In this document: piece by piece, positions 7,096 to 55,829 of the stretch
How positions within the stretch are numbered: the stretch's first letter is position 1
Layout: every line of letters starts with the position of its first letter
NCBI GenBank assembly: GCA_965204115.1
Contig: OZ241963.1
Location: 121,475-185,474, forward strand
Length of the DNA: 64,000 bases
Origin: Minisyncoccota bacterium
GTDB lineage: Bacteria > Patescibacteriota > Minisyncoccia > Phycocordibacterales > JABAAK01
Direction: 5' to 3'
The notes under the pieces: model-generated
Told to the model about the DNA's origin: nothing
Seen by the model: only the letters and a program-made list of their open reading frames with translations
Database searches by the model: none
Position numbers and translations under genes: made by a program

Positions 7096-7129
7096 ATAAA
7101 AAACGGACTGACTTTCAGTCCGTTTTTTC
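7096..7129. terminator. Bidirectional intrinsic terminator (AAAAAACGGACTGA-ctt-TCAGTCCGTTTTTT)
   Basis: Palindromic hairpin flanked by an A-run and a T-run. Confidence 0.6.
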
Positions 7130-35451: not shown

Positions 35452-35524
35452 GCCACCTTAGCTCAGTTGGTAGAGCAGCGCACTCGTAACGCGCAGGTCG
35501 TCGGTTCAAATCCGACAGGTGGCT
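35452..35524 (+). tRNA. tRNA-Thr (anticodon CGU); no CCA encoded
   Basis: Cloverleaf: acceptor GCCACCT/AGGTGGC, D-arm GCTC-AGTTGGTA-GAGC, anticodon loop CTCGTAA (U33, CGT, A37), T-arm GTCGG-TTCAAAT-CCGAC, discriminator T. Confidence 0.9.
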
Positions 35525-48703: not shown

Positions 48704-49162
48704 ATGGCAAATACCAACGAAAATCATATCACCGCCGATGAGAAATCGGAAATTGAGGCGGAATTAAAAAAACTTATAGAGACAAAGCGACCGGAGGTGA
48801 TTGAGGAGCTGCGTGTTGCGCGTGCGTATGGTGACTTGAGTGAAAATGCGGAGTATGACGCTGCTCGCAAAAAACAGGGTATCATTGAGGGTCGTATCAA
48901 TGAAATAGAGGCCATTTTGAAAACTGCGATTGTGGTAGAGGAAGATCATGGTAGGGATGTCGTTACGATCGGCAATTCAGTTACGGTGAAAGTGGAGGGC
49001 GAAGGGAAAAAGGTGTACGACATCGGCGTGGAAGGGAATGGACTGGAGGTATCCTCACACTCACCAATAGCGGAAGCGTTACTGGGTAAACAAAAAGGGG
49101 ACGCCGTGATGGCTAAGCTGCCGAAAGGCGCTGTGGAGATGACTATTCAGAGTATCAAGTGA
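48704..49162 (+). CDS. greA: Transcription elongation factor GreA
   Basis: N-terminal coiled-coil with the conserved acidic tip (ARAYGDLSENAEYDAA). C-terminal FKBP-like domain. Confidence 0.9.
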   Translation: MANTNENHITADEKSEIEAELKKLIETKRPEVIEELRVARAYGDLSENAEYDAARKKQGIIEGRINEIEAILKTAIVVEEDHGRDVVTIGNSVTVKVEGEGKKVYDIGVEGNGLEVSSHSPIAEALLGKQKGDAVMAKLPKGAVEMTIQSIK

Positions 49163-49221
49163 CGCGTGTGATACAGCAAACCTGTTTTAAACGGGTGTAT
49201 ACTACAGATAGTTTGTTTGCT

Positions 49222-49953
49222 ATGAAAGAAAAAAGATCTATACAACGAAGACGCGTGTCGCATAATACTGCGCGGCAAGAAGGGGTATTCAAAAGGCCGG
49301 GAATGCTGCGTTCTTTTGTTTATTCATTTGATATTTTTTTAGAGTTTTTACGAGGATTTAAATTTATATCCCACTTCGGCAAGGCGATTACTTTTTTTGG
49401 TTCTGCGCGGGAGGCATTGCCCGAACGATACTACACGGATTGCGAAGAGTTGGCAGCGCGTATGAGTACGAACGGCTTCGCTGTTATCACCGGAGGGAGC
49501 GGGGGCATTATGGAGGCGGCGAATAGGGGTGCGAATAGGGTAAATGGGGAATCAGTCGGCGTGAATATCCGCATTCCGAATGAGCAGGGGTATAACAATT
49601 TTTTGAAGCATTTTCAGACATTTAAATATCTTTTTTCAAGAAAAACTATTCTCTCCTGCGCTTCTGAGGTGTATGTCTTTTTCCCGGGAGGATTCGGCAC
49701 CCTGGATGAAGCATTTGAAATGCTGACCTTGGTTCAGATTGATTTGATAGAGCGGGTGCCGATTATCTTATATGGCAAAGAATACTGGGAACCTCTTGTG
49801 TCTTTTTTTCAAAAAGATTTGGTGACAACCTATAAAACAATATCTAAAGAAGACCTGGATTTGTTTGTGGTAATGGATTCTGTTGATGAGGCAGAGCACT
49901 ATATTCGATCGCTGGATTTGTCGCAAGTTCGTGCGTGTCGACTGCAGCGGTAG
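49222..49953 (+). CDS. LOG-family (TIGR00730, Rossmann-fold nucleotide-binding) protein
   Basis: ITFFGSAR...AVITGGSGGIMEAANRGA...PGGFGTLDEAFEMLTLVQ motifs of the LOG/lysine-decarboxylase-like family. Confidence 0.8.
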   Translation: MKEKRSIQRRRVSHNTARQEGVFKRPGMLRSFVYSFDIFLEFLRGFKFISHFGKAITFFGSAREALPERYYTDCEELAARMSTNGFAVITGGSGGIMEAANRGANRVNGESVGVNIRIPNEQGYNNFLKHFQTFKYLFSRKTILSCASEVYVFFPGGFGTLDEAFEMLTLVQIDLIERVPIILYGKEYWEPLVSFFQKDLVTTYKTISKEDLDLFVVMDSVDEAEHYIRSLDLSQVRACRLQR

Positions 49954-50004
49954 GAAGGCATCAACTCTCAGTTCGGGTATAGTGCTGGTGAGTAAGCGGA
50001 ATAC

Positions 50005-50390
50005 TATGTCGCACAATATACCTTTTGCGACATTGTGCAAAGCACAATGTCGCAAAAGGTCTCGTAGATTATGCGACAAATAAATTGTCGCATAATCTAC
50101 GGCCAAAGGTTCCGTATATTGTGCAACAAGCAAGTTGTCGCACGATATACGGCTAAACCCTCCATTAAAGTGTTGGCTTTGCACAATGTCGCAAAAGGTT
50201 TTGAATATTATACGACAAACAAGTTGTCGTATAATATTCAACCACCTACCAATCAAATAACATAGGTGGAGGACGCAAGCGGTATGTCGCAAAAGGTTCC
50301 GCACACTGTGCGAAAAGCAGCAGGTTTTTATAATCTATGACTTCCCTGCTGAAGTATAAATTTTGTGGCATGTCGCACAATATTTGACCT
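50005..50390. repeat. Array of long inverted repeats / half-sites with a TGCGACAA...TTGTCGCA core (at least 4 full palindromes and ~12 half-sites)
   Basis: Perfect palindromes at 50021-50059 (18-bp arms), 50064-50100 (16-bp arms) and 50201-50241 (18-bp arms), plus an imperfect one at 50114-50150. ATGTCGCAAAAGGT recurs three times and ATGTCGCACAATAT twice. Confidence 0.85.
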
Positions 50391-50394
50391 CTTT

Positions 50395-50613
50395 TTACCA
50401 AAAGATAATCTGCAGGAGGTTCTTTTTTGGCGGCTGGCAATCACGATGAGGATTTTCTGCAGTTTGCACGCAGTCGTAGAAATCCCATGATTCACCTTTG
50501 CCCACCAGGCGTGGCCATACGAAAATTTGTGCTGCTATGAAAAGAACACAGAAAAGAAAGTTGTACAGCAGAATGAATTTTAAAAAGACGATAAATTTAT
50601 TTTTCCTGGCCAT
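50395..50613 (-). CDS. Possible small single-TM membrane protein downstream of glyS
   Basis: 72-aa ORF from an internal Met (MARKNKFIVFLKFILLYNFLFCVLFIAAQIFVW...), 27 nt after the glyS stop. No SD identified. Confidence 0.3.
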   Translation of the reverse strand: MARKNKFIVFLKFILLYNFLFCVLFIAAQIFVWPRLVGKGESWDFYDCVQTAENPHRDCQPPKKNLLQIIFW

Positions 50614-50641
50614 CAAAGGCAGTATACCGCTTGATTTTTTG

Positions 50642-52006
50642 CTATCGTGCGGCGTCTTGTATATACTTCGGCAACTCTTGTATAGACATGCGCTCCTGCC
50701 GCATTGAATCCCGCTCACGGACGGTTACTGTCTCATCCTTTAGCGTGTCATAATCAATGGTTATCGCGTATGGTGTGCCGATCTCATCCGCCCGGCGGTA
50801 GCGCTTCCCGATTGCACCGGTTTCGTCATAGTAGACACTATAGCGTTCCCCTGCCAACTTGGCATACACTTCTTTGGCTTTTTCAGGATGGCCATCTTTA
50901 CGCATCAACGGCAATACTGCGACCGTCATCGGCGCGAGAGACGGATGCAACCGCAGCAGCACTCGCTCAGTGCCGTCTTCAAGTGTCTCTTTATCATACG
51001 CATCACAGAGTACCGCCATAAACAGCCGGCCGACACCGATAGAGGTTTCTATAATGTTCGGTACGATATGCTCGTTTGTCTCCTGATCAAAGTAGGTGAG
51101 TTTCTGCCCCGAGTGCTCAGTGTGCTGAGTCAGATCATAGTTTCCCCGATCGTGAATGCCTTCCAGCTCTTTCCAGCCGAATGGATATTCATACTCAATA
51201 TCAACCGCGGCTTTTGCGTAGAACACCAACCGCTCGTGCGGTGTTACCCGCAAGTGTTCTTCCTGAATACCGATTGCTTTAAGCGCCTCCAGCCGTAGTG
51301 ATAAAAATTCATCAAAATGCCGCTTGCTTTCCTTCTGGTGAAAATACTGCATCTCCATCTGTTCAAACTCCCGGGTGCGGAATAAAAACTGTCGCGGAGA
51401 GATTTCGTTACGGAACGCTTTCCCGATCTGTGCGATACCGAAGGGCAGTGGCGGGTGCATAGTATCCACCACCTGTTTAAAGTTGACATAAATACCCTGG
51501 CAGGTTTCACCGCGGAGGTAGGTAACCTCATCTCCCTCAAAAGTGCCTAAATTTGAAGTAACCAGCAGATTTTGAAACTCCGGATCGGATAAGTCATTCG
51601 GATCGCACCCCGCAACTTTTAAATTTGCTTTATGCTCCGCAAACACTTTGCGAAATTCCTCAATGCTCATCCGTTCATCAGCAGATACGCCGATTTCTTC
51701 AAGGAGGTGGTCCGCGCGGAACCGCTTTCCGGTCTTCTTGCAGGCCGTTACCGGGTCAGCAAACCCTTTCGTATGTCCGGACGCTTCCCAGATTTTCGGA
51801 TGCATCGTAATACCGGAATCCAATCCGAAAATGTCCGGGCGAGTACGCACCATGGTGTGCCACCATCGTTGCTTCAGGTTATTCGCCAGCTCAACCCCGA
51901 GCGGTCCGTAGTCATACACTCCCGCAAATCCGTCATAAATCTCAGAAGACGGGAAAACAAACCCCCGCCGTTTTGCCAGCTGTAGTATCTCGTCAAGGGT
52001 AGCCAT
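50642..52006 (-). CDS. glyQS: Glycine--tRNA ligase (alpha2 homodimeric GlyQS type)
   Basis: N-terminus MATLDEILQLAKRRGFVFPSSEIYDG, class-II motifs, C-terminal anticodon-binding domain. Confidence 0.9.
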   Translation of the reverse strand: MATLDEILQLAKRRGFVFPSSEIYDGFAGVYDYGPLGVELANNLKQRWWHTMVRTRPDIFGLDSGITMHPKIWEASGHTKGFADPVTACKKTGKRFRADHLLEEIGVSADERMSIEEFRKVFAEHKANLKVAGCDPNDLSDPEFQNLLVTSNLGTFEGDEVTYLRGETCQGIYVNFKQVVDTMHPPLPFGIAQIGKAFRNEISPRQFLFRTREFEQMEMQYFHQKESKRHFDEFLSLRLEALKAIGIQEEHLRVTPHERLVFYAKAAVDIEYEYPFGWKELEGIHDRGNYDLTQHTEHSGQKLTYFDQETNEHIVPNIIETSIGVGRLFMAVLCDAYDKETLEDGTERVLLRLHPSLAPMTVAVLPLMRKDGHPEKAKEVYAKLAGERYSVYYDETGAIGKRYRRADEIGTPYAITIDYDTLKDETVTVRERDSMRQERMSIQELPKYIQDAAR

Positions 52007-52352
52007 AATGCTTTCAGTATGCCATATTCGGCGCCCTGTCAGTCAGGACGAAATTGCCTCTATGGTATACTATTTTCGGGGAGGTGATATTTGTGCAACA
52101 TCAACAAGAAGAACAAGTATCTTCGCATTCTGCGGAAACTGCGGAGGAAGACCGCCCTATAGGTGCCGCTCCGACACTCCACATCGGCAATTTTCCCCTT
52201 GACGCAGTGACTGTCAGGTGGCTTGCTGCTTTCGCGGCTATCGGCGTTTCTGGTGATGATACTTTTGGCGGTGGTAGTGTTGACAGTATAGTAACTTAGG
52301 ATGTCTCGTATAAAAACCCGAAAACTCTCTATGAGTTTTCGGGTTTTTGAAA

Positions 52353-55760: not shown

Positions 55761-55785
55761 AAACATAGTTGATGCGATGCCAACA

Positions 55786-55829
55786 AACCAAAACGACCGA
55801 GAATTATTCTCGGTCGTTTTGGTTTTTCT
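55786..55829. terminator. Bidirectional intrinsic terminator (CCAAAACGACCGAGA-attat-TCTCGGTCGTTTTGG + TTTTTCT)
   Basis: 15-bp perfect stem between the small + ORF and the pilC (minus) stop. Confidence 0.75.

Follow-up and report, generated by a model that had tools for sequence, protein, structure and literature searches.

The stretch analysed in this report, hereafter the window, comprises 64 kb of contig OZ241963.1 from a Minisyncoccota bacterium and contains a dense array of palindromes and half-sites at 50005–50390, between a convergent LOG-family gene (+) and a small open reading frame (ORF) followed by glyS (−). Positions 50006–50033 are very probably the dif site of the chromosome, at which a recombinase of the Xer family would resolve dimers at the replication terminus. 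Most likely, the array is a set of fast-changing, dispensable pseudo-dif sites, a by-product of Xer binding and replication termination, and is not regulatory. The combined explanation, a dif core accompanied by a dif-derived and rapidly remodelled array of pseudo-sites, is considered probable with moderate confidence, because we infer the origin and the role of the array.

A dif site consists of two 11-bp arms around a 6-bp centre, and Xer tyrosine recombinases resolve chromosome dimers there (PMC5357621). The original prediction could not match the core shared by the palindromes to dif, but 50006–50033 is a dif-type site of this layout at the switch point of the GC skew. The two features are listed with coordinates and description; in this and the following lists, strand is given where assigned.

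50006–50033: dif-type core ATGTCGCACAA-TATACC-TTTTGCGACAT in 11-6-11 layout.
49700–50600: terminus signature, where the skew turns from positive to negative, the cumulative skew peaks and gene orientation converges, from skew and ORF orientation.

Arm c (50006–50016), the 6-bp centre (50017–50022) and arm a (50023–50033) make up the core, and a single base distinguishes the two arms. Set against dif sequences from the literature (PMC3025954 and PMC2731167), the core is identical to E. coli dif at 18 of 28 positions (13 of 16 at the inner positions 7–22) and to Shewanella oneidensis dif at 19 of 28. Archaeal sites accepted as dif share 14–18 of the 28 positions with the bacterial consensus (PMC2958812). 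The 28-mer is present in one copy in the window and in one copy in each fetched locus of a relative. No description of dif in Patescibacteria was found in the searched literature. With high confidence, the core would add a member to a known kind of site in this group.

The GC skew in 2-kb bins is positive almost throughout 1–50,000 and negative from 50,001 onwards, with the exception of the last bin. At 600-bp resolution the zero crossing lies between about 50,000 and 50,600. Long ORFs are located on the + strand to the left of the locus and on the − strand to its right and thus converge at the site. The switch from positive to negative skew, the cumulative maximum and the convergent genes together form a replication-terminus signature, and by this signature the locus is the replication terminus of the chromosome. 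A skew analysis had been proposed along with the original prediction to distinguish origin from terminus, and its outcome is terminus polarity. A convergent intergenic region, which had been regarded as an unusual place for such repeats, is the expected place for dif.

Four further candidates were rejected. DnaA boxes or an origin would require the opposite skew polarity. The sites are symmetric and no Tus- or RTP-type proteins were seen, which speaks against a polar fork trap of that type. The flanks are not mirror images, as hairpin telomere-resolution sites would have them, and an array of clustered regularly interspaced short palindromic repeats (CRISPR) would contain spacers, which are absent.

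The glyS neighbourhoods of relatives were fetched and searched for core and array (individual loci are denoted by L numbers). The core is identical at 28 of 28 positions in L001, L002, L004, L005 and L190 and at 27 of 28 in L003, whereas the glyS DNA of these relatives is only 72–87% identical to that of the window. The skew switch at the homologous site is also present in L002–L005. In L002 the whole spacer between glyS and the LOG-family gene measures 62 bp, and the core is its only feature. No core was detected in the fetched flanks of L006, L007, L191 and L192, even with relaxed arms; their glyS genes are 72–82% identical and their gene order is different, so that these loci are uninformative on the array.

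In a wider scan each species was represented by a single genome; the pattern specified the arms and left the centre free. The arm pattern was found on at least 119 genome contigs, mostly from Patescibacteria of many classes. Among the matches listed, there is one site stretch per contig, including three complete chromosomes, and the six free central bases return as K-R-T-A-Y-M (e.g. TATATC, TATACC, GGTATA), a pattern with which the E. coli centre TGTATA is compatible. The skew of the left flank exceeds that of the right flank in 64 of the 75 loci with enough flank on both sides (Wilcoxon p = 6.5e-11). In OY282360.1 the site lies at 48.9% of the chromosome; the start of the numbering is not visible, and this position is thus only suggestive.

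Five archaeal genomes (L010, L013, L014, L076 and L125, from Poseidoniaceae, Methanocellaceae and other metagenome-assembled genomes of Euryarchaeota/Methanobacteriota) carry the same arms, and four of the five sites have dif-like centres, e.g. TTGTCGCATAA-CATACA-TTATGCGACAA. The same arm sequence is therefore present in some archaea as well as in bacteria of the Candidate Phyla Radiation (CPR). In many CPR genomes the inverted repeat runs well past the 28-mer, with arms of up to 24 nt (e.g. L033 76–129, L015 5271–5318 and L110 3903–3948), which recalls the inverted repeats reported beside the dif of Thermococcales. In the gammaproteobacterium Agaribacter flavus the arm pattern is matched three times, on three different contigs (L034, L060 and L116), with centres that are not dif-like. 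These probably belong to an unrelated repeat family.

Xer genes were searched by tblastn with the E. coli XerD sequence as query. Full-length XerD homologues (32–37% identity) are encoded in 14 CPR loci among the matches listed. In 13 of these the gene lies within about 1.1 kb of the site, and in L031 it starts about 55 bp away. Three of the CPR Xer proteins match the XerC, XerD and archaeal XerA models about equally (E about 1e-60 to 1e-73). All three remain below the XerC and XerD (equivalog) cut-offs and one is above the XerA cut-off. The near-identical arms and the lack of differentiation into XerC and XerD suggest that a single recombinase binds both dif arms, as XerA does in archaea. The same protein would presumably bind the arms of the array.

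The original prediction described three perfect palindromes, one near-perfect palindrome and several half-sites, and all of these were recovered at the positions given for them. The bounds of the perfect repeats differ slightly: they are somewhat longer (50020–50060, 50063–50101 and 50201–50241). The features of the array are as follows.

50020–50060: palindrome A, consisting of dif arm a plus ACC, a stem extension TGTGC (5 nt), the loop aaa and a copy in inverted orientation that has ATGTCGCAAAAGGT at its end; perfect 19-nt arms.
50047–50079: putative pseudo-dif, an inverted dif copy with lengthened centre, ATGTCGCAAAA-GGTCTCGTAGA-TTATGCGACAA (11-11-11).
50063–50101: hairpin B1, two c-like arms (TTGTCGCATAA), each followed by a 6-bp stem of centre length; perfect 17-nt arms.
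50102–50111: degenerate >a half-site GGCCAAAGGT, directly preceding B2.
50112–50152: hairpin B2, imperfect, 89% complementary, the positional counterpart of a hairpin in L001 (L001_a).
50186–50199, + strand: solitary half-site, arm a plus half a centre (ATGTCGCAAAAGGT), at the start of the unit that contains B3.
50201–50241: hairpin B3, arms TTGTCGTATAA plus TATTCAA, loop acaag; perfect 18-nt arms.
50284–50318, + strand: truncated unit, ATGTCGCAAAAGGT, TCC and then GCACACTGTGCGAAAAGC, a decayed left arm of a B hairpin.
50370–50383, + strand: putative partial dif at the distal end, ATGTCGCACAATAT (arm c plus TAT), which repeats the initial 14 nt of the core in direct orientation and has a degenerate second arm.

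The arm and loop lengths of the perfect inverted repeats are 19 and 3 nt (50020–50060), 17 and 5 nt (50063–50101) and 18 and 5 nt (50201–50241), and the near-perfect repeat has 18 and 5 nt. The loop of B1 (ataaa) is at the outer end of the arms and the hairpin has a DNA fold energy of −19.3 kcal/mol. The 14-mer ATGTCGCAAAAGGT occurs three times on the + strand (50047, 50186 and 50284) and once on the − strand (50020–50033) and is absent from the rest of the 64 kb (chance expectation 0.62 matches). ATGTCGCACAATAT is located at 50006 and 50370 and GCACACTGTGC at 50301. The distal half-site is also present in L001, and a similar one (ATGTCGCATAA) is found in L004. The heptamer TGTCGCA appears nine times within 50007–50377 (about 370 bp), compared with 13 times in the other ~63.6 kb of the window. 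Three of the six perfect palindromes of the window with arms of at least 14 nt fall in the array stretch, whereas 20 Markov-1 randomisations gave 0–2 palindromes apiece, even at the laxer cut-off of 12 nt. Folded as single-stranded DNA, 49995–50400 reaches −103.7 kcal/mol (shuffled sequences −44.9 ± 3.9 kcal/mol; z = −15.0).

Stable hairpins between convergent genes might serve as bidirectional terminators for the LOG and glyS/small-ORF transcripts. No terminator-like site was found in 49600–50900, and the evident terminators of the window have flanking A- and T-runs without the TGTCG motif. Relatives with a bare 62-bp spacer such as L002 do without these hairpins, and two other simple hairpins of the same spacer in the single-stranded fold (50242–50269 and 50318–50352) could do the job. 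A terminator role is thus scarcely credible, in line with the original view that the repeats do not look like terminators. Elsewhere in the window, long perfect palindromes at 7098–7128, 52312–52348 and 55785–55825 are bordered by an A-run at one end and a T-run at the opposite end, e.g. AAAAACCCGAAAACTC-tctat-GAGTTTTCGGGTTTTT, and look like bidirectional intrinsic terminators. They belong to a different class from the repeats of the array.

For the arm map, every arm-like sequence was placed; the sign > denotes an arm that reads ATGTCGCA on the + strand. The order in the window begins with dif (>c, 6 nt, <a), followed by the 5-nt extension, the loop aaa, the inverted extension and >a+GGT. The part from <a through >a+GGT is palindrome A. 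After 8 nt follow <b-loop->b (B1), the degenerate >a, <b-loop->b (B2) and a 34-nt spacer. The array ends with >a+GGT, <b-loop->b (B3), >a+GGT with the truncated unit and >c+TAT at 50370. In sequence, the b arms (TTGTCGYAYRA) are similar to arm c, and every arm of the array is a variant of a dif arm. The B stem corresponds to one 11-bp arm plus 6–8 bp, the length of the central region, with the loop at the outer end of the arm.

Read in reverse complement, dif is ATGTCGCAAAA-GGTATA-TTGTGCGACAT. The stretch from >a to <b aligns with this sequence save for extra central bases; in the window the centre is GGT, 5 nt and AGA or ATA. The units accordingly read ATGTCGCAAAA-GGT+5nt+ATA-TTGTRCGACAA, and the form in L003 is ATGTCGCAAAA-GGT+TCCGC+ATA-TTGTACGACAA. 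The centres of these pseudo-dif sites measure 11 nt in the window (50047–50079 and 50186–50218), L001 and L003 and 10 nt in L004 and L190. From arm map and alignment, the array can be described as an inverted dif copy, an inverted duplication at the outer arm and tandem repetition. Judged from their sequence, the palindromes of the array are derived from parts of dif. In L002 the bases TGTGC follow the bare dif, and the same five make up the inner stem of palindrome A both in the window and in L001, which fits an origin by inverted duplication of arm a and its flank.

Such an array could have arisen in three steps. In the first, palindrome A and the inverted dif copy would have resulted from an inverted duplication whose midpoint lay a few bases beyond arm a. 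The centre of this copy carries 4–5 extra bases, which presumably disable recombination with the true dif. In the second, another inverted duplication at the outer end of a c-like arm would have created the B hairpin, composed of the arm and a segment of centre length. In the third, a unit of about 64–67 bp or 122 bp would have been amplified and contracted by unequal recombination between the repeats. No description of such an arrangement of dif-derived pseudo-sites was found in the searched literature.

The window, L001, L003, L004 and L190 carry the array. L002 and L005 lack it, and both keep the identical 28-mer. L003 contains five perfect units of 67 bp, and in L190 about four units of ~122 bp fill a spacer of 530 bp. 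The module of dif and array has one orientation relative to glyS in the window, L001, L002 and L190 and the opposite one in L003, L004 and L005. The terminus is alike on both strands, and such a flip should therefore do no harm. It would result from an inverted duplication after which the original copy was lost. One hairpin of L001 (L001_b) is chimeric, with a left arm of one type and a right arm of another, which points to an exchange at the conserved centre ACAA-RCAAG-TTGT.

The same arm grammar recurs in Doudnabacteria (L111 and L185) and other CPR lineages. The closely related L187–L189 show compensated differences in the extension of the A stem and a reduced B hairpin. Further variants are found in L184/L186 and in L104, a member of the Paceibacterota. 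In L104 (5435–5650), dif and a 23-nt flank are followed by a second copy of the arms with the same flank; the centre of this second copy holds a hairpin insert of about 100 nt, with one hairpin of arm-like sequences. Nearly all of the 119 species-representative loci listed have only 0–2 extra half-sites near dif. Arrays are thus uncommon and lineage-specific.

Compensation was examined by folding eleven distinct B hairpins singly and tabulating the pairs by distance from the loop. Column-wise pair counts were not used because MAFFT set the bulges of the hairpins in different registers. Stem positions 13, 15, 16 and 17 show three to four Watson-Crick pair types, positions 7 and 9 show two, and few pairs are broken. 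B1 and B3 differ at three stem positions, all of them compensated, and both hairpins are perfect. B2 and L001_a occupy the same position and have several stem differences, and both stay paired; the shared 34-nt spacer that follows them is about 82% identical (own count). Additionally, the extension of the A stem differs yet stays complementary in L003, L004, L190 and L185/L187, including between close strains. These comparisons argue strongly for turnover of the array with compensated changes in its stems.

A dimer that reads only the arms would not keep up complementarity outside them. Its maintenance thus points either to selection of the hairpin or cruciform or to template switching that restores the pairing. 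Template switching within quasi-palindromes is an established mutational process that makes palindromes perfect. Either process would account for the stems.

The array might instead be an accessory region of dif, whose extra Xer arms or cruciforms would aid or orient the synapse or hold the recombinase at the terminus, by analogy with the accessory sequences of cer and psi and with the inverted repeats flanking the dif of Thermococcales. The array always lies directly beside dif and always on the arm-a side, hairpin complementarity survives many substitutions, and the loop with the inner stem, ACAA-RCAAG-TTGT, is conserved. If extruded, palindrome A would form a four-way junction surrounded by arms c, a, b and a, similar to the Holliday intermediate of Xer. 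In archaea, too, dif is reported to lie between inverted repeats, to which a partner protein may bind (PMC2958812). However, L002 and L005 keep the identical 28-mer without any array, and the few extra half-sites at nearly all of the other CPR loci listed do not fit a required region. Furthermore, copy number, unit length (64, 67 and ~122 bp) and spacing (4, 10 and 11 nt) vary, which speaks against a fixed architecture. An accessory function is very doubtful.

The arms of 16–19 bp with short loops and without U-tracts could also belong to a dispersed family of repetitive extragenic palindromic (REP) elements or miniature inverted-repeat transposable elements (MITE), or be operators or centromere sites of an unrelated dimeric DNA-binding protein. 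REP elements begin with GTAG, as hairpin B1 does. No copies are present elsewhere in the 64-kb window or in about 150 kb of flanks of the relatives, and the array is a single locus; the dispersed family considered in the original prediction is therefore not what was found. Every arm is a variant of a dif arm, and a dimeric repressor that reads sequence would not give compensated variation outside the 11-bp arm. parS sites cluster near replication origins, and a centromere or parS-like role is unsupported because the locus is at the terminus. Nor does a multi-operator regulatory region agree with a core that is conserved at termini across the superphylum and an array that close relatives can dispense with. 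These readings are highly improbable. The more general suggestion of protein-binding sites fared better: the repeats do look like such sites.

A serious alternative among the rivals, if on the whole an unlikely one, is that the array consists of one or more integrated, non-coding elements that exploit Xer, i.e. a minimal form of an integrative mobile element that exploits Xer (IMEX). Roughly 364 bp from the core to 50370 would have entered by Xer recombination at dif, with the hairpins as attachment structures and the tandem units as repeated integrations. In single-stranded form, palindrome A and its flanks would fold into a dif-like structure with a bulged centre comparable to CTX attP. The array is bounded by dif and the 14-nt direct repeat (arm c plus TAT, second arm degenerate) in the window and in L001, and these bounding sites resemble trapped IMEXs such as the gonococcal island with its degenerate dif (PMC5357621). 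Presence and absence are patchy among close relatives, the same grammar is found in unrelated CPR classes, and the hairpin-bearing insert of L104 lies within the centre of a second dif copy. Arm c plus TAT and ATA plus arm b are complementary at 11 of 14 positions in the window and at 13 of 14 in L003, so that these sequences could form a long hairpin in which dif is rebuilt with a 5-nt bulge.

Viral contigs bear on the same alternative. The same dif type with dif-like centres is carried by 57 viral contigs from IMG/VR (L127–L183), often near the ends of the fetched stretches. One of them (L132) encodes a Rep protein of the ssDNA-phage type (PF23343), with the site 33 bp downstream of rep. In several of these contigs (L135, L142, L158 and L159) a poly-C run precedes the site. 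Most are tailed-phage contigs, as judged only from reading of their ORFs.

Several observations are at odds with integration. The array has no coding capacity, and units of 64–67 bp are too small to recombine as double-stranded circles. The centre of the B hairpin gave seven isolated matches in coding sequences of IMG/VR viral contigs, none of them in hairpin context. The order of the sites does not fit a simple integration, with the full site on the LOG side, the degenerate site on the glyS side and the array on the arm-a side; it would work only if a second full dif had decayed later. In each lineage the arms of the hairpins follow those of the local dif (ATGTCG in Doudnabacteria, TTGTCG here), which is what local derivation predicts. 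Moreover, the minimum-energy fold consists of separate A and B hairpins and not of the long dif mimic.

A related proposal is that the hairpin units are an unrecognised class of non-coding, self-amplifying elements that parasitise Xer and dif. Neighbouring hairpins in single-stranded DNA or cruciforms would rebuild a dif-like substrate with a bulged centre from half-sites, and the Xer protein of the host would insert, duplicate or delete units beside dif, as a cargo-free analogue of CTX attP or integron attC. This proposal is quite unlikely.

The explanation by dif-derived pseudo-sites faces difficulties of its own. An origin of the palindromes by duplication and template switching is presumed from their anatomy. 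The complementarity kept across the diverged B2 and L001_a could mean that the hairpins are selected, in which case the term by-product understates their role. The distal arm c plus TAT repeat (50370) is expected of an integrated Xer-dependent element, but a by-product does not require it. With regard to the core, a single copy was seen within the window and within the fetched stretches of the relatives. Finally, no Xer gene was detected by tblastn in the 64-kb window or in the loci of the close relatives (L001–L007), and the cognate recombinase of this genome is thus unseen.

The genes flanking the array are listed below.

49159–49953, + strand: LOG-family (Lysine_decarbox/SLOG) gene, left flank (Pfam PF03641, E = 2e-27).
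50395–50613, − strand: small ORF of 72 codons with a hydrophobic stretch.
50642–52006, − strand: glyS (glycine-tRNA ligase gene), right flank (Pfam PF00587 and PF03129).

The homologues of glyS are those of Candidatus Kaiserbacteria, and the best protein matches point to a relative of Kaiserbacteria (Patescibacteria/CPR). The small ORF has no Pfam match and is part of a 258-bp segment (50384–50641) without counterpart in L001, where the distal half-site is 38 nt from the glyS stop. The genes next to dif differ among the relatives: an N6/N4 DNA methylase fused to an HNH nuclease in L003 (11500–12744), a RadC-like protein in L001 (4938–5711) and a 257-aa orphan in L005 (11875–12648). Given these differences, the terminus seems to be an insertion hot spot. 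A search of the window against Rfam at gathering thresholds returned rRNA and tRNA only and no match at the locus. The 3′ end of a 23S rRNA gene and a 5S rRNA gene are located on the + strand at 1–699, co-oriented with the inferred direction of replication, and one tRNA gene is present at 35452–35524.

The comparison of sites gives a testable dif consensus for Patescibacteria/CPR, ATGTCGCAyAA-KRTAYM-TTrTGCGACAT. It would mark the terminus in fragmented metagenome-assembled genomes of this very large group, most of which is uncultured. It also points to a recombinase that is XerA-like and probably single, and it flags phage-like contigs with the same site that may integrate there. In the unusual arrays, a recombination site appears to have given rise to copies of its half-sites, both inverted and tandem, whose stems are compensated and which turn over rapidly. 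The arrays could record template switching linked to replication termination and Xer, or be a minimal element that exploits Xer. Either reading, if true, bears on site-specific recombination and genome stability.

Compared with known systems, the array has features of several. Like REP elements and bacterial interspersed mosaic elements, its palindromes are short, hairpin-forming and extragenic. In contrast to these elements, it has no dispersed copies in the window or in the flanks of the relatives, and its arms appear to be recombinase half-sites. No gene for a REP-associated tyrosine transposase (RAYT) was noticed among the window genes examined. In the pdif modules of Acinetobacter, successive Xer-type sites alternate in orientation as they do here (PMC11705084, PMC12907356). 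Those modules carry cargo genes and are mostly found on plasmids, whereas the modules of the array are empty, consist of 13–25 bp or hairpin loops and are located at a chromosomal terminus.

With IMEXs (CTX, TLC, VGJ and the gonococcal genetic island) the array shares the position of DNA between a functional dif and a degenerate, dif-like direct repeat, and its inverted dif-like sites could, in single-stranded form, fold into a duplex of dif that bulges at its centre, in the manner of CTX attP (PMC5357621). Phage-like contigs that carry the same dif type as the core add to this likeness. Unlike IMEXs, the array has no genes, its units measure 64–122 bp, no free form was found in IMG/VR and no single simple integration fits.

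The core and E. coli dif (GGTGCGCATAA-TGTATA-TTATGTTAAAT) agree in length (28 bp), in the 11-6-11 layout and in the location at the shift point of the GC skew (PMC3025954). The centre of the core also fits the T-G/A-T-A-T-A/C pattern, and, as in dif/XerCD systems, a recombinase of the Xer family is encoded nearby in genomes related to this one. Both arms of the core, however, resemble the XerC-side arm (...CGCAyAA), there is no recognisable arm of the XerD type (TTATGTTAAAT), and the recombinases near the CPR sites stay below the equivalog cut-offs of XerC and XerD. Among single-recombinase systems, XerS/difSL is similar in that xer often adjoins the site and that the 11-nt centre of the pseudo-dif has the length of the difSL centre (PMC2958812, PMC5357621). 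The arm sequence of the core differs from those of difSL and difH (XerS and XerH). The flanking repeats of the locus would be tandemly amplified copies of dif arms, which in the searched literature are unreported for single-Xer systems. The archaeal XerA/dif system, finally, resembles the locus in its near-symmetric arms, and one CPR protein exceeds the cut-off of the XerA model.

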